Source: an uncultured Acidobacteriota bacterium (GTDB taxonomy: Bacteria; Acidobacteriota; Blastocatellia; RBC074). From it: a DNA stretch of 64,000 nt. Below are positions 50,659-64,000 of the stretch, piece by piece (the first letter of the stretch is position 1; every line of letters begins with the position of its first letter). Under the pieces are notes generated by a model, which ran no database searches, was not told where the DNA came from, and saw only the letters and a program-made list of their open reading frames with translations. The stretch covers positions 928,001 to 992,000 of the forward strand of contig CAWCKY010000004.1 of assembly GCA_963796275.1 (NCBI GenBank), written 5' to 3'. The translations under genes were made by a program, and so were the position numbers.

Positions 50659-53034
50659 TTACTGACTTTCAACTGCTCCGATATCAGTGCCGCCCGGAAC
50701 CCCGGTATTGATCAGGTCGCTTCCGGGCGCCAGCCTGAGGAAATTCCCGAGGCTGATGCTGCCATCGGAGTTGCGGTTAACAGTGGGCGTGAGACTGATG
50801 AAATCAGCCGCGCTCACGACCAGGCCTTTGGCATTAACGCTCACGCCATTCTTCCACCAGCAGTTGGTGCTGGAGACGTCAGTACCGACAGTATGGTCGC
50901 TGTTGGTGCCCTGGAAGGAGAGGTTGTTGGAGAAGACGTGGGTGCCCTCGTCGAATTTGATGTTCTCCTCGCCGTTGCCCCACGAGGTGTTGTTCGTCAT
51001 CGTGATGCTGCCCGGATTCCGGTTGAAGGTGAAGCCATGCTTTTTGTTGCCGAAGGCTATCGAGCGCCTCACGATGTGATTGACCGCGATGTCCTCCCCG
51101 CCCAGTTTGAAACCATTGCCATCGCTGTCGGTGGTCGTACCGCCGCTCGACAGCGTCCCGTTGTTGTAAGCGATGCAATTCTCGATCGTCACAGCGCCGA
51201 TCGCTCCGGTGTCGTCCTGCGTGAAGAGGTCCCAGCCATCATCGATATTGTGATGGGCGATACAACCGCGAAAGACGTTGCCCGGCCCGGATGTCAGTTT
51301 GGAGGCGAACCCATCGGCATCTTCACCGTTATCCGGATCGAAATTATCGAAGGACGTACAGTTGAGGATCAGGTTATTGGAGGGCCATTCGCTCACGGGA
51401 GCGCTCGAAGAGTGGCGGCTGAGTTGCAGCCCTGTGTCACGGTTATGATGCGTGATGCAGAGCTCGATGGTGTTGTTGTTGCCGCCGATGAAGATGCCGT
51501 TGTCGCCGGCGCCCATGACTTCCAGCCCACGAAAATGCCAGAAGTGGCCGTTGAGCTGGATGCCTCGATTGCTCGAAGCGAACGCCTGTGCTGAGAAGTT
51601 CAGAATCGGCCTCTCGCTGCCGAACGCGTAGATTTTCTTGGTCTGGCCGGAGCTACCGTTGTTGCCGCGAGCGATAGTGACCGTGGTTGATAGGTTATAT
51701 GTGCCGCCCCGCATGAAAATCGTTCCGCCCGCCGCGATGCGAGTGACAGCCGAGGCCAGCGTGGCCGGCTGAGCCATCGTTCCCGGATTCGAATCGGTCC
51801 CGTTCGGAGCGACGAAAAGATCACCACCTCCAACCGGCGTGTCTACCGGCGTTGCGCTGACCTGACTTGAGTTGGCGCTCTGACCTGCGGAATTCACCGC
51901 GGAGACCACGAAGAAATAGGTCGTACCATTGACCAGCCCCATGTTGAGAAAACTCGTCGCGCTCACACCGGTGGCTATCGTCGTATATGGGCCGCCACTC
52001 GTCAGCGACCGCTTGACGTTGTAACTGCTCGCCCCCGCCGATGCGTTCCAACCCAACGAGACCTGCTCATCTCCCGCGTTGGCCAGTAGACCGGTCGGCG
52101 CTGGCGGCGGGTTTTGCACTCCCTGCGGCGTCGCGCTGATTTGGCTCGAGTTGACGCTCTCTCCGAAAGAATTCACCGCCGAGACTACATAATGGTATGT
52201 CACTCCATTCGTCAGGCCGGTATTGAGATAATTGGTGGAAGTAACACCAGTAGCGATGATGGTGTAGGGACCGCCGTTCGTGGTCGAACGCTTGACGTTG
52301 TAGCTGCTCGCACCCGTCGATGCGTTCCAACTCAACGTCACCTGCGCGTTACCCGGAGCGCCCGAGAGACCGGTCGGGATAGACGGAAGAGATACGCCGC
52401 CTCCCAGCAAGGAGATGAAAAAATCGTCGAACGATGCGCTCGCGAAATATGTCGCCCCGCCGATGAGCCCGGAAGTGTATTCGCCCTCCGTCGCATTCAA
52501 AAGCAGCGCGCCATTCACATAGCCGCTCAGAGATGAGCCCTGCGCGTCGAGACGGAGCGTGTAATACGTACCCGTTGTAAAATTGAATGACCTTGACGCC
52601 AGAATTATAGGTGCACTTCCCGCTCGCTTACCCAATACGAGTCGGTTTCCATTCTGCAGCGCCAGAAAATAATAATGGTTCGAGTTCACCACGCGCGTCA
52701 TCACACCGATAAAGCGATCGGCTCCGTTGAAGGCGATCGGCTTCACTCGCGCCTGTACCGAGATGTCGGTCCACGACGAGGACCCGGTCCTCGTATTCGA
52801 GTCCGCGCTCGTGCCTGATTGCCTGTAGGCCAGCGATCCATCCGTCACAACCGACCAGGTTCCGCTCGATCTCGTCCATCCGCTCGCATTCCCATCCTGA
52901 AAGTCGTCGCTGAACAATGTCTGGGTCTGGGCTGAAACTCCGAAGCCGATGAGGATGGCAAAAAGAGCTACCAGTATGGAGAGAGTGATTTTTTTCTTTC
53001 GTTCTATTTGTAGCTGGATACTTTCGTTTGTCAT
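50659..53034 (-). CDS. Secreted PL9 (PelL-like) pectate lyase with N-terminal lectin/LamG-like domain and two FN3 repeats
   Basis: Signal peptide; FSDDFQDG beta-sandwich; two LxWNASxGASSYNVKRS repeats; DADGFASKL...NIDDGWD and DGNGFKLGG PL9 motifs; SD AAGGAG before ATG 53034. Confidence 0.88.
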   Translation of the reverse strand: MTNESIQLQIERKKKITLSILVALFAILIGFGVSAQTQTLFSDDFQDGNASGWTRSSGTWSVVTDGSLAYRQSGTSADSNTRTGSSSWTDISVQARVKPIAFNGADRFIGVMTRVVNSNHYYFLALQNGNRLVLGKRAGSAPIILASRSFNFTTGTYYTLRLDAQGSSLSGYVNGALLLNATEGEYTSGLIGGATYFASASFDDFFISLLGGGVSLPSIPTGLSGAPGNAQVTLSWNASTGASSYNVKRSTTNGGPYTIIATGVTSTNYLNTGLTNGVTYHYVVSAVNSFGESVNSSQISATPQGVQNPPPAPTGLLANAGDEQVSLGWNASAGASSYNVKRSLTSGGPYTTIATGVSATSFLNMGLVNGTTYFFVVSAVNSAGQSANSSQVSATPVDTPVGGGDLFVAPNGTDSNPGTMAQPATLASAVTRIAAGGTIFMRGGTYNLSTTVTIARGNNGSSGQTKKIYAFGSERPILNFSAQAFASSNRGIQLNGHFWHFRGLEVMGAGDNGIFIGGNNNTIELCITHHNRDTGLQLSRHSSSAPVSEWPSNNLILNCTSFDNFDPDNGEDADGFASKLTSGPGNVFRGCIAHHNIDDGWDLFTQDDTGAIGAVTIENCIAYNNGTLSSGGTTTDSDGNGFKLGGEDIAVNHIVRRSIAFGNKKHGFTFNRNPGSITMTNNTSWGNGEENIKFDEGTHVFSNNLSFQGTNSDHTVGTDVSSTNCWWKNGVSVNAKGLVVSAADFISLTPTVNRNSDGSISLGNFLRLAPGSDLINTGVPGGTDIGAVESQ

Positions 53035-53050
53035 GGGTTCTCCTTGGTTG

Positions 53051-53144
53051 GCGCGCGGGGACGCATCGCTTCCAGCTTGCTGAGATTCGATCATCGGCCG
53101 CCGGGTGAAACTCCGCACACTGGAAGCGATGCGTCCCCGCGCGC
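53051..53144. repeat. Perfect 25-bp inverted repeat REP-like element related to 42295
   Basis: GCGCGCGGGGACGCATCGCTTCCAG and CTGGAAGCGATGCGTCCCCGCGCGC arms. Confidence 0.85.
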
Positions 53145-53677
53145 TCTTCATCGTTTCAGGGCGTCTTCATTCGAAGACTTGAGGGCTCCTCCTGTAGTTG
53201 ACGGGTTATACGTTCATCTTCTATTTTTCATCAATTGTCTCAATATGTAACTAATGCACTGAGACAAAGCTACTTAGAGGGACTGTTATCACAGAGAGTG
53301 TCTAGAAAAAAATATTGAGATGACGGCTAAATATCAGGACCAGGCTTCGACGGGAAGCCCTCGGGAACTGCAATAATGCCCATGAATGCAACTTTATAAG
53401 AACATCCCGGAAACAACTGCAACTTCATGGCTTAATTTCATCTTCCCTAAATGGCCACCCAGGATGATGCCAGTCAACTATGATTTGCAGCTATAGCAAT
53501 CAAATAATTAGGCTAACGGGATTTTGTCTTAACACGAGACAAATACTCCGAATCGGATGATTTGTCAACAGAGACCCAGATTATGATGAAAAATTTTAGA
53601 TATTTTAGACAGACAGGGTTTACAGGATTTTGGGGATTTACTTCAATCCTGCAAATCCCGTCTGTTTTCGATCGTTA

Positions 53678-55561
53678 TTAACGCGGCTGAGCTGATGCGG
53701 GAGGAAGCAGACGGAAGCGTAAGACGCTGGGGCGCTGCTTATCGTGATAGACGGTTTGATGCGCCGCAACTGCGCGAACGGCGGACTTGATGGGTTCGCC
53801 CGTGTTCAGGTTGCGCGCATAAAAAGGAAACATATGACTATTGATCATCAAACCGAGACGATGCCCTTGCTTGACCTGGTGGGCGGTATCCCAGATCGCA
53901 ATGGTCGCCTTATACACTTGGTTCGGAACCAGGAGTGAAGGATTTTCCCAGCCGCTGATGTATCTGGCGCGAATCTTACCGGGAAGTCCGATCACCTTTA
54001 TGATCCCCTTTTCGTCGATGTCGACCAGCGATGCGAAAAAGTCGGTATCCTTCGCGCTTGTCGAAAAGTACAAATCCAGCTCGATCGGTCCGCCGAGTTC
54101 GTACTCCGCCGCCGCCGCATCTGTCTTGTAAATGAGTACGTCGTTTTCGTGAGGCTCGAATTTCACTTCGGTAGAACCCAATTCGAAGATATCCTTCATA
54201 TCTCTCAGTTCCTGCGGTATGACCGCAATAGCGGGATTATAGGTATACCGGTCCGGCTCCTGGTCGCGGGGGGCATCGGGTTTCAATTCGCCCAGGCTTG
54301 TTTTGCCGTTGGCTGGTCCGTCCGCGCTCAGGTAGAGGCTCATCTCTTTAGACTTCGGGTCTGGCCAATCTTCAAGCTCCATCCACCGGTTAGCTCCCGT
54401 TACAAAGACTCGAACCTTGGGTTGTTTATTCCAATAGACGTTCTTGCCCTTCAGCCAATGATCGAACCAGCGCAAATATATCGAATCGATCTCCATGATC
54501 GCGTCCGGTCCGTAGTCTACATCCTTCAATCTCGATGTGGCATTGAAGCGATGAGTCCAGGGACCGTAGATGAGCCATTGGTCTTTATGACCCAGCTCCC
54601 GCATCCTGCCCCAGTTGAGTTTCGTCCCGATGCCGTCAGAGTCCCACCACCCGCTGATATGCATGATGGGGATATTGATCTTTCCCATATCTGGCATGAA
54701 GCTCATACCGGCAAATGCGGAAGGCGTCTCATTCTCCAGCCATTGATCGTAATACGGTATGTCGACTCCCAATACCTCATCATCGGCCCGCGTCAGCGGA
54801 AGGGTCTGGAGTTTATCAAGGTTTGTTAGCAGTTGCGGGAAATCCGGCACTTTCCGGTCTCTGACATAATTGGCCCACCAGAGCGTGCTGTAGAGCATCG
54901 GGATGCCGTGATCGATCGGAAAATTGAAGAACAGGTCGGGCGGAGATACCTGCGGAACAATGCATTTGAGAGCCGGGTGTGCCTCGACTGCCGCAGCCCA
55001 CTGCACCCAACCTAGATAACTTCCGCCGATCATTCCGACATTACCGTCGGAGAAGGGCTGTTTGGCGATCCAATCGATGGTGTCGTAGCCGTCGCGCCGT
55101 TCATGAGAAAAGGGATTCCAATCGCCCTGGCTCTCATTGCGCCCGCGCACATCCTGTACGATATGGACATAACCGCGTTTCGCCCACCATTCGCCTTCCA
55201 GCTTCGATAACAGCTCTCTCCCGTATGGAGTGCGCTCGAGGATTGCCGGATACTTACCATCGCCGGCGGGGCGGACGATATCGGCTGTGAGAGCTACACC
55301 GTCGCGCATCTTCACCTTGACGCCCTTTTCGGATTTCGTCTTGAAGTCCGGGCGGCTCAATTCCGGGTAGAGCGTCGTCGGATCTGACAATAATTTTTCA
55401 AACCCAGATCCAATGGCGCGCGCGGCCGCGGCAGGCGCGGAGACAGGTCGCACATCTTTCGGCGCCCGGCTAGGAAACGGTGCCAGAGCGACGAATGCAG
55501 CGAGCGATAGGATAATGAAGAACGGGGCATTCGGGGCATTCGGGGCAAATATATTTCTCAT
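53678..55561 (-). CDS. CocE/NonD family serine hydrolase (S15), exported
   Basis: MRDGVAL.AD, RTPY, QDVRG, GGSYLG nucleophile, GWWD and GPWTH motifs; C-terminal jelly-roll domain. Confidence 0.92.
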   Translation of the reverse strand: MRNIFAPNAPNAPFFIILSLAAFVALAPFPSRAPKDVRPVSAPAAAARAIGSGFEKLLSDPTTLYPELSRPDFKTKSEKGVKVKMRDGVALTADIVRPAGDGKYPAILERTPYGRELLSKLEGEWWAKRGYVHIVQDVRGRNESQGDWNPFSHERRDGYDTIDWIAKQPFSDGNVGMIGGSYLGWVQWAAAVEAHPALKCIVPQVSPPDLFFNFPIDHGIPMLYSTLWWANYVRDRKVPDFPQLLTNLDKLQTLPLTRADDEVLGVDIPYYDQWLENETPSAFAGMSFMPDMGKINIPIMHISGWWDSDGIGTKLNWGRMRELGHKDQWLIYGPWTHRFNATSRLKDVDYGPDAIMEIDSIYLRWFDHWLKGKNVYWNKQPKVRVFVTGANRWMELEDWPDPKSKEMSLYLSADGPANGKTSLGELKPDAPRDQEPDRYTYNPAIAVIPQELRDMKDIFELGSTEVKFEPHENDVLIYKTDAAAAEYELGGPIELDLYFSTSAKDTDFFASLVDIDEKGIIKVIGLPGKIRARYISGWENPSLLVPNQVYKATIAIWDTAHQVKQGHRLGLMINSHMFPFYARNLNTGEPIKSAVRAVAAHQTVYHDKQRPSVLRFRLLPPASAQPR

Positions 55562-55942: not shown

Positions 55943-56718
55943 TTACATCGCCAGTTTAAATACTGCGAAATAGGCGCCTTGCGGATCTTGAATGATCGAG
56001 AAGCGTCCCGTTTTAGGAATATCGGTCGGTGGAACGTGTACATTTCCGCCCAACTTTTTGGCTTTCTCACTGGTCGCGTCGCAATCTTCGACCATGAAAT
56101 AGATCATCCAGTGTGGCGGCACGCCTTCGAATTGCCCGCCTTCCATCGGCAACATTCCGCCGAGGGGCTGGCTCCCGTTCACCCATTCCGTATACGCCAT
56201 GAAATCGCTGTCTTTGGTCGACCAGCCGAATAGCTTGGTATAGAAGGCCTTCGCGCTCGCCGTGTCGCGCGTCATCAGTTCAACCCAGCAGGCAGATCCC
56301 TGCTCGTTGACCAGATCGGCGCCTAGATGCGTCTTCGGCTCCCAGACAAAAAGTATAGCGCCGGTCGGGTCTTTGAAGCCGGCCATGCGCCATGATCCAT
56401 TACATCGAATGCTGGAATGACCACTTCGCCGCCAAGCTCTGCGGCTTTCGCGGCCGTCTTCTCGGCGCTGTCTACCGCGACATACGCCATCCAATTCGGC
56501 GGCATACTGGGCTGCTGCGGCCCCGGTTGGTACAGTGCGCCGACCTCTTTGTCGCCGACGCGCAGCATCGTGTAAACGCCAGAATCACCCGGCAATACGT
56601 TGTCGACATGATTCCAACCGAAGAGCTTGGTGTAAAACTCCGTCGCGGCTTTTTGATCGCTTGTCGTCAGCTCGAACCAGCAGAAATTCCCGGCGGGATG
56701 TTTAAGTTGATTACCCAT
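55943..56718 (-). pseudogene. Two-domain VOC/glyoxalase family protein, -1 frameshift near 56388 as assembled
   Basis: GNFCWFELTTSD...FY.KLFGW in domain 1 and CWVELMTRD...DPQGAYF in domain 2; joined by restoring HGRMA. Confidence 0.8.
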
Positions 56719-56930
56719 ATTATTCCTCCCATTGAATCGCTGAAGTTTGGTTGATCAGGTCAGGCGCATTGATTCTGACGCAGAAAAGCGGAAGAGTGAA
56801 GCGGATTCGAAGCAAAGACGCAATGCGCATGGAATTTCTTTTCGCCTTTATCTCCCGGCAAATTTCCGGGCGAATTGCTCATTAAATTTCCTCGGAATAT
56901 CCGGAACCATGTTAACGCACACGAGTCGAA

Positions 56931-59900
56931 TTATCTCCATTCACCCTGAATGACGAACGACGCCCAGAAATATGGCGAGGACCAGCGTTTCTGCTTCATC
57001 ATTTCGAGTTGTGCCATGCGCAGGGCAGCCGCCGGTCGCCGGCCATTCTTCAGCATCTTATGATAGAAATGCGCCATCAAGTCGGCAGTAGCGTAGTCAT
57101 CGACGCGCCAGAGGCTCGCCACGACACGCTGTGCTCCGGCATACATAAACCCCCGCGTCAATCCGACCAGCCCTTCGCCTTTGATCTCCTTTCCGAGACC
57201 CGTCTGACAGGCGCTCAGTACGACGATCTCCGACGGCATCCGCAGGTTGTAGATATCGTGCAAGCGTAGAAATCCATCCTGCGACTTTCCGGTTTTGTCC
57301 AACAGAGACAAGACCAGCCCCGATAGTTCGGGATGCTCGCTATTGAGCAAACCATGGGTAGCGAAATGGATGATGCGATAGTCGGCCAGCTCGCCGCTCA
57401 TGACCATCGCCCGGCTGGCCTGGAAAGAGGTTGCTTTCAACAACGAATTGGCCGGCACCAGTTCAGCAATCGCCTTGGCCTCATCTATTGAAAACGGCAA
57501 GCGCCCGAAACTTCCCCTGTACGTGGCTCTAATCGATCTAATAAATTGGGAAGCATCCGAATTCTCGGTTGGCGATGACGAGATGGGGTCGGGAGCCGAG
57601 CGGATAATCACGGTTGGAGCTCGCTTTCCCGTTTTTCGCTTGATTATTGTGAGCAGACGCGGATCGTCGGCTTCGAAGACCGGATCAGCCAGGACCGCGA
57701 GCATTTTGCGGGCGGGGACGCGCCCGGCCGACTCGCGCCGAATCACCTCCAGGACCGATGCCGATGGCAAATTGACGATCTCGTGATCGGTGATTAGCGG
57801 TGTCAGGACTGAGTCGGGATGCCCAGACGCACTCGTGTGGAGGTCGGGAGCAGGAAGTGCACCGAAGGGGAGATACTGCAATGCCCCATCCGCCACAATC
57901 AACAATCGCTTCCCTTTCCATTCTCCGCAGAGCGAATCGGCGATCTGACCGAACAACATCTGGCTCAAATCTTGAGCGGCAGATCTATACTGCGCATCGG
58001 CCTCGGCGATCTGCTTGAGTTGCTCCGCCTCTGCTAATCCAGCCCTCGGCTCCCGTGCGGTCAACCGCTCATATACGGCGCGCGCGGCATTTTCGATCTC
58101 TGATCGTGACGGGAGCTGGCGGCTGACAATCGCTTGCGGCGTCACCACCCATAACCAGCTGCGCTCTTCGCCGAGCGCAAATTCCAGCAAGATCGTCTCT
58201 CGGTCTAGCAATTTCCGCTGTATTTCCACGACGGTTAGCGGTTCGGGACGAGTGAGTGCGGCGTAACGCGGATTGGAATCACGAATCTTCGCTTCTACAT
58301 CCCGGTACCGAGATGTCAATTCGGCGATCTCCCGGTCAAAGTCAGTCGCTGAGCCTTCCGGGTCAAGGTCGCTGAACGCGCGCGCCCGCGCCGCTGCCTT
58401 CGCGTTCAGCTGTTGGTGCAATGTGCGCGCGCTCTCGCGCAGTTGCGGGTCAATGCCCTCCCCCAAGTCGAGATTGATCTCGGCGAGTTGCTCGAGCAGT
58501 CCCCGGGCGCGCGCCCGTTCGCTGGCGCGGAGTGCCAATTCATCGTATCCCGCTGACGGTTTCCGCCGGTGCAACGACATGAGCAGGTCGATATAAATCT
58601 CAAAATCGTTCTGAGCGTAACCGAAGAATGATGCGCGCAGGTCCTGCCGCGAGACGCTGGATCGGATAGATTCCTTGATCTCGAGTGCCGCCTCGATCTG
58701 TGCGCGCGCTGCATCCAGATCGCCCATCGAGTAGTTGGTCCGTGCCAGGATATAGAGGGTCTGAGCTTCCGACTGGCGCACCCCCATTCCCCGGTACAGA
58801 TTCAAAGCCTGGTTAAGGTAATCCAGCGCCTTCTCCTTCTCCCCTCCCAGGTTAGAAAGATTGCCCAAAGCCTGCAGCGCACCGGCTATAGATCTGTTGT
58901 CCCCCACTCTTCGTGCCATCGTAAGCAACTGATTGTAATAATCGGCAGCCTTTTCACGATCGCCCAGCGCGAGATACACGCCGCCCAGTCCTCCCAACGC
59001 AACGCCCTCCTGATACAAATAACCGTGCTTGCGCGCGATCTCCAGGGCGCGCTCAAAGAACTCGAGCGCTTCCCTAATTTCACCCAGATCTTTGCGCGCC
59101 AATCCTAGAAGATTGAGCACACCGCACTGGTGCAATGTATTCCCAACAATCGTATAGGTCTGCAGAGCCTGGTTGAAATAACCGAGAGATAACCGCGGTT
59201 CGCCCAGCGCAAGATATACTCTTCCTATATTTTGAATCGCGCCTGTCTCTCGGAACCTGTCCGATAAACTCGCAAAAATTCTTCTTGCCTGGCTGAAACT
59301 ATCGAGAGCTTGCTGAGACTCTCCCCAACCGCGTTGTATGTGGCCAAGCGATATCATCAGATTCGCCGCCTGGCGAAGATCGCCCAGGTCCTGCGCAATC
59401 TGCCTTGCCTGGTTGTGGTAGATGTAGGTTGAATGGAGATTCTCCGAGTCTGCGGTATAACGCGCCAATACGTGTCAACAGCCTTAATTCACTCGGACGA
59501 TCTCCCAGTTCCCGCCAAGAAGCCAACGAGGTCTTATATTTTGCGATACCTCGCGACAATTCTTCCGGCGTCCATACCTTGTTAGCCAGAACATCCCCTT
59601 CCAATTCGGTTCTGACAGCATCAATGCGGAGTTTGTCATTGTGCGTGACCGGTCGCAGCGTCTCGATTTTGATTTCGTAAGTTAGCCGCGCGTAGATTTG
59701 GTCGAGCAGAGACGTTTCCAACCTGTAGTTCCCCGAAACCCGAGCGACGAACAAGAAGGTTGCGACCTGTCTCTCTTCGCCTCCGTTCATTACCTTTTGA
59801 GTCGAAGTGCTCAGAAGAGGCGTCTCCTCTTCGTGACAATTGGGATCCGGCGCGAACAATTTTGCCCGCAATTTGTCATGTTTGCAGGTCAGCGTCAGGC

Positions 59901-60120
59901 GCAGGTAATCGCCGGCAGAAAGATTTATATGCCAGAAGTGCATCTCTCCGCCTGCAATCTCGACTGATCTCGGAACGTCCGGTTCAAATATTTGTGGCTG
60001 TGCCCGCGCTTGATCCATTTGCATTGATATCGCGGCAGACGGCCAATGGCTGAGCGCAAACACCATCACCAGGAGCCAGGAATAGGGACGATGCGGATGT
60101 CCGGTCCGTGCGATCTTCAT
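56931..60120 (-). CDS. Exported TPR-CHAT (caspase-like) protease with N-terminal PPC-like domain, +1 frameshift near 59440 as assembled
   Basis: ORF 59299..60120 (signal peptide, PPC-like beta domain, first TPR) joins ORF 56931..59468 (TPRs, SERARAR, catalytic HFATHG and LSACQTG, SLW.V.D, PYFWASF). Confidence 0.88.
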
Positions 60121-60189
60121 TGATTTTTCCTCCGAAAAAAGTCCGGGGGCGCGAGTGCGGACCCGCTGGCTTACAGCCCGCCGGTTTTG

Positions 60190-61137
60190 TCACAACTTGG
60201 TGATTCTGAAAAAGTAGCTTGTTATTTCTTCCGACTCCCCAGCCGAGTCGAGGGCGGAAAGCTTCAGGATGTAATCGCCTGGCACCAATCTGCCGGAAGG
60301 AATGTCGACAGAGACCGCGTAGTCAGCATTTTCAAGCCGAGGTTTGAGAGTTGATCCCTTCCATATCTGCCGCCCCCCGACCTCGCGCACTGCGGCCTCA
60401 AAAGTGCGCGAATCTCCCCGCTCAACTCGCATTAACAAACGTACTACGCCGGAATCGCTAGGAATCGCCAAAGACTGCGGATTGTTGCCGCTGCGTATCA
60501 GTCTGGGCGAAAGCGTAAAAGAAAATATTCCCCGTAAGTTTCGAGCCGCCGGCTGCGTCAAATTATTATTTTCGCCGCGCAAGCGTTCAAGCGCCTCTCT
60601 CATCTCCTCGTTCTGATTGCGCGCAGCGGCGATCCGATCGGACAACTCCTCTTCACGGATCCTCTGACTTTCGCTATCGCCTGCGATTCGCGCCATTTCA
60701 CGGCGCAATCGCAAATCGTCGATGGAGAGCCATAGGCTTACGGCCAAAAGTAACAAAATAGCCGCTGCCGCAGCAATCGGCCACCGCGAAAATGGTGTGC
60801 CGTATTTTCCGAACAGATTCGCCCACTGAGAGACCTTCGGCTCCACCGCATACTCTTCCGTCATCGATCCGTCCGCCTTCTTAATCAGATCCTCGGCAAC
60901 CTTGACGCGCTGAAAATGGACCGGAGTGACCAGATAGTGGCGCTCGAATTTTTCTCGATCTGCGGGCGCCAGCCGGCCGCGGACATACCCGTCGACCAAG
61001 GTGTTCTCAATCTCCCACATCTGTTCGAACGATTCGTCCTCGGCGAAAAGTTGCTGTTCCAATGCGATCGCTTCCGTTTCCGGCAGATCACCGAGTAGAT
61101 AACGACGCATCTGATTTTCCAGTATTTCGGTCCTCAT
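60190..61137 (-). CDS. Putative transmembrane anti-sigma factor (N-terminal ASD-like, TM, coiled coil, C-terminal beta domain)
   Basis: RRYLLGDL.E.E...LE...LVDGYVRG.L...R..FE.HYL N-terminus; TM AAAAAILLLLAVSLWL; L.PGDY.L.L...Y.FRI C-terminus; lies between the sigma and CHAT genes. Confidence 0.7.
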   Translation of the reverse strand: MRTEILENQMRRYLLGDLPETEAIALEQQLFAEDESFEQMWEIENTLVDGYVRGRLAPADREKFERHYLVTPVHFQRVKVAEDLIKKADGSMTEEYAVEPKVSQWANLFGKYGTPFSRWPIAAAAAILLLLAVSLWLSIDDLRLRREMARIAGDSESQRIREEELSDRIAAARNQNEEMREALERLRGENNNLTQPAARNLRGIFSFTLSPRLIRSGNNPQSLAIPSDSGVVRLLMRVERGDSRTFEAAVREVGGRQIWKGSTLKPRLENADYAVSVDIPSGRLVPGDYILKLSALDSAGESEEITSYFFRITKL

Positions 61138-61224
61138 TTTCGGTCATGGCGAACGGCCGCCATCATTTAAGCAGCGTATTATCTATAACTGTCAAAATAA
61201 TCGAATCCATGTCGATCAAGTCGA

Positions 61225-61827
61225 TTATTTTTTTCCTACCGGCGATGGCGGTCCTCCGATGCACTGGGTGACACATTGTTCGAGTTTTTCTCTAATTCTC
61301 TGAGCGCGGTTACGGAGCGCATTTAGCGGTATTCCCAGACTATTAGCAAGGGCCTGGCGGTTGTTTATCTTGAGGCGTCGCTCATCCTGATAATATTGCA
61401 GAATCAATCGGTGGCTCTCGATCGGTAACTGGCTCAGGCATCGCTCGAAACAATTATGTTGGGCAGACTCTTCCGTTTGGGGAGACGATGTGGCGACTGA
61501 GCCCAGCTCGTCGAGGCTGACCTGACGGCTGCCGGCCTTTTTATGCGTTTCGACCAACACCAAGCGGGCGATGCCCCCACAATAAGTGGGAATATCGCGA
61601 ATCGCCTCACCCGATTCCAATTTACGGATGACGCGATCGATCGTCTCATCGGCGCACTCTTCGGGAAAATGTGCCCCGCGCCAGTCGAAGAATTTCACCA
61701 GCTTCCGGCGGATGACTTCATATTTTTCGCCGGCTACATCGACATCGCCATCGAGGCAAGCAAGCAGTCGTCCCAGCGCTTCTCCTGTCAACACCCATTC
61801 GGTCCGGGTGGTTCGGACATTATTCAT
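61225..61827 (-). CDS. Divergent ECF-like RNA polymerase sigma factor
   Basis: YEVIRRKLVKFF, EECADETIDRV (region 2-like), CLSQLP...LILQYY and LANSLGIPLNALRNRAQRIR (region 4 HTH). Confidence 0.8.
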   Translation of the reverse strand: MNNVRTTRTEWVLTGEALGRLLACLDGDVDVAGEKYEVIRRKLVKFFDWRGAHFPEECADETIDRVIRKLESGEAIRDIPTYCGGIARLVLVETHKKAGSRQVSLDELGSVATSSPQTEESAQHNCFERCLSQLPIESHRLILQYYQDERRLKINNRQALANSLGIPLNALRNRAQRIREKLEQCVTQCIGGPPSPVGKK

Positions 61828-62164
61828 GTCGTGTCGGCTAATCCTCCAACATTTAACCTGCGGGCAAAATAGTCGCCCTATTCCCTTCGGTCTCGCATCT
61901 TAACTTATTTCACTTTTGCCAGCATCGTATTTTGCCTGTCTTCCGAAAAAACTCTGCGACATGTTTTCTCCAACGTCACCAGTAGTGCATGGAGACGCAA
62001 CTGACACAACACGAATTGCGGATGGTACCGCCATCCGTCTATCGAAGGAGGTTGAAAGCCATGACCTCTATTACCGGGAGTCCCGGCGGGAGCGGCGCCG
62101 GAAATAGATGCGCCGCTCCGGAATGGTCAGCAGCGTCACCGACAAAATCAACTAGGAGGAATCT

Positions 62165-62842
62165 ATGCATAACATTGATCGTACGAACATGGAGTCGAAT
62201 TTTGACGAATACCAGAACGGCGAGTTCGGGTACGAGACCGCAGGCGATCAAGAATACGAAACTTACGGCGAGTACAACCAGGAACTTCCCTTCAACGAAG
62301 CCGAGGAGATGGAGTTGGCGGCCGAATTGCTGAGCGTTTCGAGCGAGGCGGAATTGGATCAATTTCTCGGAAACCTCATCAAGTCTGCGGGCCGGGCCGT
62401 CGGCGGCGCTATCAAATCTCCGGTCGGCAAGGCGTTGGGTGGGGCGTTGAAAGGAATCGCGAAACAAGCGTTGCCGGCGGTGGGAGGCGTCGTCGGAAAC
62501 GTTTTGTTGCCCGGCGTCGGCGGGGCCATCGGAGGGAAGCTCGCCTCGGCCGCCGGCAAAGCGTTCGGATTAGAGTTGGAAGGGTTGAGCTACGAAGACC
62601 AGGAGTTTGAACTGGCGAAAGGCGTGGTCCGTCTGGCCAGCGCGGCAGCCAGCAACGCCGCTCAGGCCGCGCCATCGACGCCGCCCCAGCGAGTGGCTCA
62701 AACCTCATTGACGGAAGCGGCAAAAACACACGCGCCGGGACTGCTGCGAGGAAACAAAGCCGGATCTGCGGACAAATGCCAGCACCAATCCAACGGCCGC
62801 TGGATCCGACGGGGAAATACGATCACTCTGGTGGGAGTCTGA
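62165..62842 (+). CDS. Hypothetical protein: acidic N-terminus, cationic glycine-zipper helices, C-terminal GRWIRRG motif
   Basis: Strong SD AGGAGG; 225 aa; EMELAAELL..SEAELDQFLG, GGxxG repeats, LELEGLS.EDQEFE. Confidence 0.8.
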   Translation: MHNIDRTNMESNFDEYQNGEFGYETAGDQEYETYGEYNQELPFNEAEEMELAAELLSVSSEAELDQFLGNLIKSAGRAVGGAIKSPVGKALGGALKGIAKQALPAVGGVVGNVLLPGVGGAIGGKLASAAGKAFGLELEGLSYEDQEFELAKGVVRLASAAASNAAQAAPSTPPQRVAQTSLTEAAKTHAPGLLRGNKAGSADKCQHQSNGRWIRRGNTITLVGV

Positions 62843-62845
62843 ACC

Positions 62846-64000
62846 GTGGCTATTCAACGGGTACGCGCTTTTCCTGCCTGGTCTCCGGCGTTGAGCCTTC
62901 TCGAACAAGAGGCTCGCGCGCTGCTTGCCCGGCTGGAGAAGGTCAAACCGTTTGCCCTGCATCAGACGATGGTTCCCGCCGCCGCGCTGCCGCCGGCCGT
63001 GCTGAGCGCGATCGATCGCTATTTGATCGATGGTCGCCGCAAGGTCCGGCGGTTGGTGCAAAACTACGTGGATTGGTTAGTCGGAACGGCGGGACATTCC
63101 AGCCATCTCGAACCGGCGCACCGCCGCTTCAGAATGCTACGACTGCAATTCAATACTGTTCTGTCGCAATTCGACATCTTCGCCGATGTCATGACCCAAC
63201 GCAGCGAGCACGAAACGGGCGTCTGGTTGGCCGGTCTGGACGCGGCCGCGTCCGATGCCCTTTCGCTCAACGGCGACTATTACAGCCCTCCCGCATTAAT
63301 CTGTTATCTGGATCGCGGGTACGGCGCGGCGATTCGCCGGGCGCGGACGCGATTGCCGGGAGGAGGAGAGAATCCGGTGGGCATCATCCGCGTGCCGCGC
63401 GAGCGGATGATCGGCAGCGGGATCGCATCATCGCTGATTCATGAGGTAGGCCATCAGGCCGCGGCTTCGCTCAACTTGACCGAATCGATCCGCCCGATAC
63501 TGAGCGGGCTACAGCGAAACGGCGAAACGAATGGCGCAGTCTGGAGGTACTGGGACCGCTGTCTCCCGGAAATCCTCGCAGATTTCTGGTCGGTCGCCAG
63601 ATTGGGACTGACATCGACGTTGGGACTGATGGGCGTCGTGACGCTTCCCAGATATTTCGTCTTCCGGCTGAATCTCGACGATCCACATCCGGTTCCCTGG
63701 ATTCGCGTCAGGCTGAGTTGCGCCATCGGGCGCATGCTATTCCCGCATCCGCAATGGGACAGACTCGAGGGCATCTGGCTCTCCTATTATCCGCCGGAGA
63801 ACGCCGATCGCCGGAAACGCGATTTCCTGGCGCTGCTTGTAAAGACGATGCCGGGATTGGCGGCGCTTATCGCAAATCACAGTCCGCCCTCGCTCGCCGG
63901 CGCCTCGTTGAAAGAAGCGCTGCAGACAGTCGATCGGCAACCGGCTCATTTGACCGATCTGTTTCGATCCTGGCGCGCATCGCCGGCCCGGATGTACAGG
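62846..64000 (+). CDS. HEXXH zinc metalloprotease-like protein, truncated by window edge
   Basis: Manual translation from GTG 62846 is open to the window end: LLEQEARALLARL..VKPF, YLDRG.GAAIRRA, LIHEVGHQ, EILADFW and DPHP..WIR. Absent from the ORF track because it has no stop. Confidence 0.8.
   Translation, partial: MAIQRVRAFPAWSPALSLLEQEARALLARLEKVKPFALHQTMVPAAALPPAVLSAIDRYLIDGRRKVRRLVQNYVDWLVGTAGHSSHLEPAHRRFRMLRLQFNTVLSQFDIFADVMTQRSEHETGVWLAGLDAAASDALSLNGDYYSPPALICYLDRGYGAAIRRARTRLPGGGENPVGIIRVPRERMIGSGIASSLIHEVGHQAAASLNLTESIRPILSGLQRNGETNGAVWRYWDRCLPEILADFWSVARLGLTSTLGLMGVVTLPRYFVFRLNLDDPHPVPWIRVRLSCAIGRMLFPHPQWDRLEGIWLSYYPPENADRRKRDFLALLVKTMPGLAALIANHSPPSLAGASLKEALQTVDRQPAHLTDLFRSWRASPARMYR

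Follow-up and report, generated by a model that had tools for sequence, protein, structure and literature searches.

In holin-endolysin cassettes and in lysis-type secretion, a small membrane-opening protein is encoded next to peptidoglycan hydrolases under a tight switch. In the type III-E Craspase, Csx29, a protein of tetratricopeptide repeats (TPR) and a CHAT protease domain, is accompanied by a sigma/anti-sigma pair. The present study concerns the right end of a 64,000-nucleotide stretch (the window) from an uncultured Acidobacteriota bacterium (contig CAWCKY010000004.1, positions 928,001 to 992,000), where a triad of genes for an extracytoplasmic function (ECF)-like sigma factor, a membrane anti-sigma factor and a TPR-CHAT protein is transcribed divergently from a pair encoding a glycine-zipper (GZ) protein and a protein with an HEXXH motif. 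For the triad, passages of a report on Myxococcus xanthus describe DdvS as an ECF sigma factor held by the transmembrane anti-sigma factor DdvA, which has a periplasmic TPR-CHAT part; they propose proteolysis for the release of DdvS and give the dyad of DdvA as incomplete (PMC11506125). CHAT proteins are noted in ECF54 neighbourhoods in passages of PMC8999054, and excerpts of PMC7826278 describe ECF54 without an anti-sigma factor. As regards glycine zippers, a study on Tde1, a type VI secretion system (T6SS) effector, reports that its N-terminal glycine zipper is needed for translocation into target cells (PMC10240207).

The original prediction joined the triad and the pair into one system of five genes, with the triad as regulator of the pair. 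Comparison with homologous loci leads to a different picture. The triad and the pair look like chance neighbours, and the pair appears to open a conserved operon under sigma-54 control. The whole statement, that two unrelated units meet here and that the conserved sigma-54 operon works through a GZ protein, a zincin and hydrolases, is given a probability of roughly 0.55. Far more secure than the mechanism is its first part, namely that the two units are unrelated and that the sigma-54 operon is conserved.

The glycine-zipper/HEXXH pair and its operon in other genomes

The features of the right-hand unit, and of the spacer that separates it from the triad, are listed below.

62165..62842, plus strand: GZ protein, 225 aa, with an acidic tail, a helical bundle containing a Lys/Gly segment and a C-terminal beta hairpin GRWIRRGNTITLVGV (composition, AlphaFold2 (AF2) model)
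62846..64000, plus strand: HEXXH protein, truncated at the window end after 385 of about 450 aa; HEVGH at residues 199-203
61828..62164, no strand assigned: divergent spacer, 337 bp, with no recognisable sigma-54, sigma-70 or AAC-N15-18-CGT pattern
62089..62119, plus strand: perfect 10-nt inverted repeat GGAGCGGCGC / GCGCCGCTCC with an 11-nt loop, 46-76 nt 5' of the ATG (repeat search)

The length of the spacer, the start of the HEXXH gene (GTG at 62846, 3 nt past the GZ stop) and the acidic, D/E-free Lys/Gly-rich and again acidic layout of the GZ protein were all as first proposed. The same does not hold for the linkage of the pair to the triad. Relatives of the HEXXH protein were sought in one genome per species (GTDB species genomes), and 556 of 598 candidate stretches encode one. 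Gene context was studied in the best 80 of the 556 loci, with up to 10 kb on either side, and 1198 open reading frames (ORFs) were called. At 56-84% identity in the HEXXH protein, these 80 loci belong to Acidobacteriota, Nitrosomonas/Nitrosospira, Nitrospira, Planctomycetia, Chloroflexi, Verrucomicrobia, Methylococcales and Alpha- and Betaproteobacteria (at least eight phyla). The window's sigma and anti-sigma proteins matched none of the ORFs in them, and its CHAT protein matched a single ORF of one locus. Triad linkage, the point on which the five-gene system had been staked in advance, is thus absent among the loci of homologs. A Pfam scan of 150 ORFs lying just 5' of the pair, in 55 of 60 loci, gave no CHAT domain and one ECF sigma factor, the third gene away (L042). 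These upstream ORFs are unrelated housekeeping genes, and at the closest locus (L001, 84% identity) an FtsX/MacB permease stands upstream in the place of the triad. Because the triad is lacking from the homologs' loci, we regard the triad and the pair as unrelated units. What accompanies the pair as its regulator, in place of the triad, is a sigma-54 activator, along with a -24/-12 promoter.

Gene order was counted in the 43 loci where a HEXXH ORF had been called and the downstream sequence extended for 9 kb or more. No HEXXH ORF was called in 14 of the 80 loci because ORF calling was crude (high-GC antisense ORFs, contig ends), and these 14 were excluded from the counts; the ORF cluster C3 is antisense noise. 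The operon begins with one or two GZ genes, the HEXXH gene, an orphan gene designated C2 (540-750 aa) and often a BioF-like pyridoxal phosphate (PLP) enzyme. One to several variable hydrolase or binder proteins follow, then an M20 dipeptidase, an Amidohydro_2 protein and, at the far end and usually on the opposite strand, the sigma-54 activator. A GZ gene lies immediately 5' of the HEXXH gene in 40 of the 43 loci; the counts for the other members are 40 (C2), 35 (activator), 34 (Amidohydro_2), 28 (PLP enzyme) and 20 (M20 dipeptidase, which matches PRK08201 at 516 bits with a cut-off of 441). Of 54 adjacent pairs of GZ and HEXXH genes, 39 are separated by 2-7 nt. Sigma-54 promoters were scored against a 12-position consensus, TGGCACG-N4-TTGCW (core TGGCAC-N5-TTGC; GG-N10-GC), with a threshold of at least 10 of 12. 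Of 53 loci, 35 have such a site ahead of their leading GZ gene, at a density of 1.61 per kb 5' of that gene against 0.07 per kb across all loci and both strands.

The variable proteins in the middle of the operon numbered 81, and 73 were scanned after 8 near-duplicates or short ones had been dropped. Domains that bind or cut peptidoglycan occur in 49 of the 73, the middle-protein domains being PG_binding_1, Amidase_2, VanY, M23, CHAP, Muramidase, DUF2272, OmpA-like, Glucosaminidase and Extensin-like_C; one PG_binding_1 protein additionally bears a PLD domain. Five others have a different enzyme domain alone (Aspzincin_M35 in two, trypsin in two, a weak Beta-lactamase2 in one), and 19 of the 73 had no domain match. 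Of the 134 non-core ORFs that lie between HEXXH and activator genes, only 2 have a hydrophobic N-terminus by a crude hydropathy test. The GZ module was found in 102 ORFs of 65 loci, 20 of which exceed 330 aa and include PG_binding_1-GZ-Amidase_2 fusions. Of 92 small GZ proteins, 69 have the C-terminal hairpin motif; so do 22 of 104 middle or large proteins, and among 674 unrelated ORFs it is seen in one. The tripeptide 'ELE' is about six-fold more frequent in middle proteins than in unrelated ORFs (2.04 vs 0.32 per 1000 aa), and many of its occurrences lie where domains meet or close to C-termini.

In the form GRWxRxG..I.V, the hairpin motif also stands close to the N-terminal end of large proteins in the operon (L010:14866-16701, L010:16731-19001 and ORF 7 of L061) and twice within one ORF; it behaves as a portable tag.

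The HEXXH protein has 5273 relatives at E<=0.001 among 8000 scored candidates, the full-length ones being about 450 aa, and an exhaustive search with the full-length ortholog P0001 gave 913 cluster representatives at E<=0.001. The homolog P0007 is 84% identical. In 50 sequences of 33-95% identity, H199, E200, H203, E242 and D246 are invariant; E242 lies 39 residues past the second motif His, and the zincin signature (HEXXH plus third ligand) is present. The AF2 model of P0001 (predicted local distance difference test (pLDDT) 91.9, predicted template-modelling score (pTM) 0.89) places the HEXXH on a helix behind a three-stranded sheet. A PDB profile search returned nothing meaningful, and a Foldseek search of the model against the PDB gave no match at E<=0.001 (best E 0.13). 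One homolog bears a precomputed label, PF28072.1, which is absent from the Pfam copy scanned. In a plasmid collection, five records carry a relative (Rhizobium, Ensifer, Paraburkholderia). Identity between the HEXXH proteins of Acidobacteriota and those of Proteobacteria, Nitrospira, Planctomycetia, Chloroflexi and Verrucomicrobia is 56-62%, unusually high for such distant hosts.

For the GZ protein, 2422 relatives were found at E<=0.001 among 8000 scored candidates. Residues 1-65 hold 19 D/E and one K/R, residues 66-136 form a D/E-free run of 71 residues rich in Lys, Gly and Ala (18 Gly, 8 K/R, 7 GxxxG), and the sequence turns acidic again at residues 137-160 (6 D/E). Across the family the start MHxIDRT is invariant; next come an acidic tail, variable and rich in Glu and Tyr, and then a helix that is conserved (EAEEMELAAELL..ELDQFLG). 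The Lys/Gly zipper is followed by the invariant block GLELEGLS..EDQEFE, by APGLL and by a terminal GRWxRRGxxIxLxG; tandem duplications are seen among some GZ proteins. The AF2 model, built from 40 sequences, has six helices and the terminal beta hairpin, with pLDDT about 90 at residues 40-105 and 123-195 and disorder at residues 1-39, 109-122 and 197-208. In it the cationic zipper segment and the acidic flanking helices are predicted to belong to one helical domain. No match was obtained for the GZ protein in Pfam, NCBIfam or PADLOC, nothing meaningful in a PDB profile search, and nothing at E<=0.001 when its model was compared by Foldseek with the PDB and viral structures. The highest 19-residue Kyte-Doolittle mean for a GZ protein was 1.14, which is below transmembrane grade.

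A gasdermin-like reading of the GZ protein was rejected, as the protein has no Pfam family and no Foldseek match and is all-helical in the AF2 model bar the terminal hairpin. In PHROGs, the sole phage-library result was a weak match of residues 66-159 (62360..62640) to the tape-measure profile phrog_167 (E 7e-5; 2e-4 for a Nitrosomonas paralog), and this match of the Lys/Gly segment is probably compositional. Tape measures too join glycine-rich membrane segments and wall hydrolases.

For C2, a PDB profile search gave nothing meaningful, and the ESM Atlas returned mainly unnamed clusters, with a weak lead from the N-terminus to CarboxypepD_reg-like clusters. None of the HEXXH, C2, PLP, M20 and Amidohydro_2 proteins matched PADLOC, as was the case for GZ, and the activator matched there the AAA+/helix-turn-helix part of RtcR/PspF models alone. 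No description of the operon was found in full-text literature, subscription journals not being covered.

Some observations on single lineages may be added. An ORF of about 156 aa without a Pfam match lies divergently 5' of the first GZ gene in L016, L018, L019, L021, L029, L036 and L043, which are Nitrosomonas and Methylococcales loci (for example L019:7485-7955, minus strand), and may be a lineage-specific operon member. Upstream neighbours seen once and not recurring include three tandem tyrosine recombinases (L012:5441-8648), a VipB-like sheath ORF (L031:275-1480), and a TIR protein with an nSTAND1 NTPase (L002:5593-8941).

The left-hand triad and the divergent spacer

The left-hand unit consists of the following features.

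61225..61827, minus strand: ECF-like sigma gene, 200 aa, first of the left-hand operon; scores below family cut-offs
60190..61137, minus strand: anti-sigma-like gene, 315 aa, single-pass, 87 nt past the sigma gene (hydropathy, zf-HC2)
59299..60120, minus strand: N-terminal piece of the TPR-CHAT protein, 273 aa, with a signal-like start, an N-terminal domain and the first TPR (alignment to P0394)
56931..59468, minus strand: body ORF of the TPR-CHAT protein, 845 aa (PF12770 and several TPR families)
about 59439, minus strand: one-base frame break in the TPR-CHAT gene, GGA GAA T CTC CAT where P0394 has G-E-L-H

The sigma gene was found where it had been placed, with weak scores: 45.6 bits (E 7e-12) against TIGR02989 (cut-off 124.55), 25.4 bits against the sigma70-ECF superfamily model TIGR02937 (cut-off 42.9) and 17.8 bits (E 0.0025) against CAS_III-E_sigma (cut-off 100). 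In Pfam it matched Sigma70_r4_2 alone, weakly (E 0.007), with the sigma-2 models unmatched, and it had no PDB sequence relatives at E<=0.1. The anti-sigma-like gene, too, lies where it had been placed; its product has a single hydrophobic stretch (WPIAAAAAILLLLAVSLWLSI, about residues 119-139) and an N-terminus that scores weakly, at 21.2 bits against zf-HC2, just under the cut-off of 22.2. This N-terminal domain has no Cys and hence no zinc-binding Cys. Among PDB sequences its one match at E<=1 was to an unrelated acetyltransferase-like protein (E 0.042). The three genes lie on one strand with short gaps of 87 nt (sigma/anti-sigma) and 69 nt (anti-sigma/TPR-CHAT), and the triad is therefore suggested to be an operon.

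An exported TPR-CHAT protein with an intact dyad had been proposed as the third member. The dyad is indeed complete: in the 845-aa ORF the CHAT domain (PF12770, E 2e-70) spans residues 497-842, with the His motif HFATHG at residue 701 and the Cys motif SACQTG at residue 752. The gene is not one ORF, its two pieces overlapping by 170 nt in different frames. The body is 71% identical to P0394, an intact relative of 1035 aa, across residues 11-845, and the 273-aa piece aligns with P0394 residues 17-242 (56% identity, E 6e-74). Since P0394 runs through the junction uninterrupted (...IGALYRGLGELHSTYSYH) and the window frames read ...RRLGE / LHSTYIYH, the window has one extra base near 59439. Export signal and protease body lie on either side of this break, and the database copy of the window's CHAT protein (P0391, 808 aa) begins at an internal Met. 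A second gene nearby, a two-domain glyoxalase/vicinal oxygen chelate gene (55943..56718, minus strand), is also split, into overlapping ORFs of 131 and 183 aa that both match PF00903, with its break near 56388, about 3 kb from that of the CHAT gene. In view of this second break, an assembly indel is as likely as a real pseudogene for the CHAT gene. Taken together, the predicted products of the left unit suggest an ordinary signalling operon of ECF-like sigma, membrane anti-sigma and exported TPR-CHAT protein, of a kind already known.

Further left lie an X-Pro dipeptidyl-peptidase (S15) gene (53678..55561, minus strand) and an 830-aa gene (50659..53151, minus strand), neither of which recurs beside the pair in relatives.

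In the spacer, a sigma-70 scan gave no sites, and AAC-N15-18-CGT was found on neither strand, though ECF groups differ in their patterns. Rfam gave no matches at 56500-64000. The inverted repeat at 62089..62119 sits at the -24/-12 position of six aligned relatives, and the window resembles L001 from about 62104 on, just past the promoter position of that locus. Three copies of GGCAAAA/TTTTGCC lie near the start of the sigma gene (61859..61936; inverted at 61863, direct at 61914 and 61929) and could be candidate regulator-binding sites.

A candidate mechanism and its alternatives

In the mechanism considered here, the activator would sense a signal and fire the sigma-54 promoter. The GZ module would be the membrane-active part, with the cationic glycine zipper and the acidic flanking helices modelled in one domain. 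The co-translated HEXXH zincin would process the GZ protein, an idea that comes from the tight coupling of the two genes, and may also process the multi-domain hydrolases, with the recurrent acidic 'ELE' linkers perhaps serving as cleavage sites. The signal-less hydrolases would so reach the wall, leading to controlled lysis or to the release of lytic enzymes. One part of the original prediction stays reasonable, namely that a zincin would mature a masked cationic GZ protein used for lysis, competition or death. Its gene is tightly coupled to the GZ gene in relatives, and cell-wall hydrolases dominate the remainder of the conserved operon. The mechanism by itself (membrane-active GZ, zincin processing, hydrolases brought to the wall) is offered as tentative.

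Several points weigh against this reading. The sigma-54 promoter of the relatives is missing from the window, where the best site scores 7/12 (at 61862) and none reaches 10/12, and the window covers the first two genes of the operon, of which any remainder in this genome would lie past 64000. The membrane action of the GZ protein is read from composition alone because it has no classical transmembrane segment, and among the operon members tested the 19-residue Kyte-Doolittle maximum is 1.74, again no transmembrane-grade segment. Protease activity, substrate and 'ELE' cleavage are predictions for a protein that has no match in Pfam, NCBIfam or PADLOC and belongs to no known peptidase family; its leads are weak, namely BepA at rank 9 in Foldseek (probability 0.38, E 0.44) and Peptidase_U49/M48 clusters in the ESM Atlas (0.77), the other clusters there being unnamed. 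The roles of C2, the PLP enzyme, the M20 dipeptidase and Amidohydro_2 are not explained by the mechanism. Finally, ORFs were called as the longest ORF with a greedy choice, and true N-termini may differ.

In a wider form of the proposal, GZ, HEXXH and C2 would be the core of a machinery that is triggered by the sigma-54 activator and carries GZ- or hairpin-tagged signal-less hydrolases across the cytoplasmic membrane. This is a possibility that we put forward with similar reserve. If true, bacteria would have here a new way to export proteins or to undergo programmed lysis, encoded in at least 556 species genomes and at least eight phyla. More generally, if the operon works as proposed, it would be a widespread switchable module whose three core proteins have no known relatives and which would give cytoplasmic wall-cutting enzymes access to the wall. 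Its carriers are soil Acidobacteriota, ammonia and nitrite oxidisers, anammox bacteria, methanotrophs, rhizobia and others, and it would bear on self-lysis, enzyme release and attack on neighbours without classical lysis or secretion genes.

Could the operon be an interbacterial weapon? Its hydrolases would then be bacteriocin-like polymorphic bacteriolytic effectors, carried across the target membrane by GZ. The variable, mosaic set of hydrolases, which includes PLD and trypsin domains, and the fusion of the GZ module and the hairpin tag to effectors are in keeping with this, as is the necessity of a glycine zipper for Tde1 translocation reported in PMC10240207. Exported immunity-like ORFs were not found, given the 2 of 134 hydrophobic N-termini in the crude test; secretion-system genes do not recur nearby, with one VipB-like ORF among the 150 upstream; and the best-conserved parts are cytoplasmic-looking enzymes. 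We consider a weapon unlikely. The narrower reading of the products as T6SS cargo was rejected, having neither fold or domain support nor a linked apparatus.

A takeover of the operon in this lineage, with the ECF-like triad controlling the GZ-HEXXH genes after loss of their sigma-54 promoter, would account for the divergent placement of both units around a common 337-bp spacer and for the hairpin found where the relatives have their sigma-54 element. The census of loci speaks against it, with no ORF matching the window's sigma or anti-sigma and one ORF, in 1 of 80 loci, matching its CHAT protein, no CHAT and one ECF sigma among the 150 upstream ORFs, and the permease upstream in L001; so do the broken CHAT gene and the absence of AAC-N15-18-CGT from both strands of the spacer, though ECF groups differ in such patterns. 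Such a takeover is improbable. A divergent arrangement as striking as this one can be a chance neighbourhood, and the cross-genome comparison of context decided the question here.

The operon could also be a cytoplasmic pathway for recycling of, or feeding on, peptidoglycan fragments under sigma-54, with GZ and HEXXH as accessories. Its proteins have no signal peptides, Amidase_2, VanY, the M20 dipeptidase and the amidohydrolase could jointly dismantle muropeptides, and sigma-54 often controls nitrogen-related functions. However, PG_binding_1, OmpA-like, M23, CHAP, muramidase and PLD domains target the intact envelope, the mosaic, variable architecture is unlike a housekeeping pathway, and the cationic glycine-zipper module is left without a role. 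Little credence is given to this explanation.

Scarcely credible, and rejected as the main model for want of fold or domain support, is a pathway like those for ribosomally synthesised and post-translationally modified peptides, with GZ precursors bearing an acidic leader, HEXXH as leader peptidase and C2 and the PLP enzyme modifying the core: several GZ copies and tandem duplications do precede the enzymes and both extreme ends of GZ (MHxIDRT and the C-terminus) are invariant, but the whole 225-aa protein is conserved as a predicted helical bundle, the GZ module occurs inside large hydrolases, and known enzyme families of such pathways were unmatched.

Comparison with known systems

The triad resembles DdvS-DdvA, as passages of PMC11506125 describe them, in that an ECF-like sigma factor, a single-pass anti-sigma-like protein and an extracytoplasmic TPR-CHAT module are encoded together. 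In the window, the anti-sigma and TPR-CHAT parts are separate genes (60190..61137 and 56931..60120), whereas in those passages they are parts of DdvA, and the dyad is complete whereas that of DdvA is given there as incomplete (PMC11506125). A phmmer search against PDB chains matched the CHAT ORF to TPR proteins only and gave no DdvS or DdvA match, the presence of these two in the PDB copy being unconfirmed. With ECF54 and Craspase, the window has in common a CHAT protease genetically tied to an ECF-like sigma factor; it differs from ECF54 in having an anti-sigma-like gene, it has no CRISPR genes, and its CAS_III-E_sigma match is far under the cut-off. Because of the separate genes, the complete dyad and the lack of similarity, the triad is filed as working like DdvS-DdvA/ECF54 and not as a member.

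On the right-hand side, the HEXXH protein resembles zincins of the HEXXH...E type (M48/BepA and U49/Lit as weak leads) in its invariant HEXXH, the downstream Glu and the helix after a small sheet, and differs from them in matching no peptidase-family model and no PDB fold. With the Tde1 zipper (PMC10240207), the GZ module shares repeated GxxxG in a segment attached to, or lying beside, enzymes that need to cross a membrane. The two have no sequence relationship and no T6SS genes are present at the operon; the GZ zipper differs in being a cationic segment of about 70 residues that lies between acidic helices and precedes a conserved beta hairpin.

Holin-endolysin cassettes have in common with the operon signal-less hydrolases beside a small protein and tightly switched expression. 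Unlike a holin, the GZ protein (220-250 aa) has no transmembrane segment and has acidic flanks and a predicted folded bundle; no phage genes lie nearby, and at least five conserved enzymes of the operon are foreign to a lysis cassette. By these analogies, the function of the operon would be closest to that of switchable lysis or effector-release modules, with core proteins unrelated to theirs.

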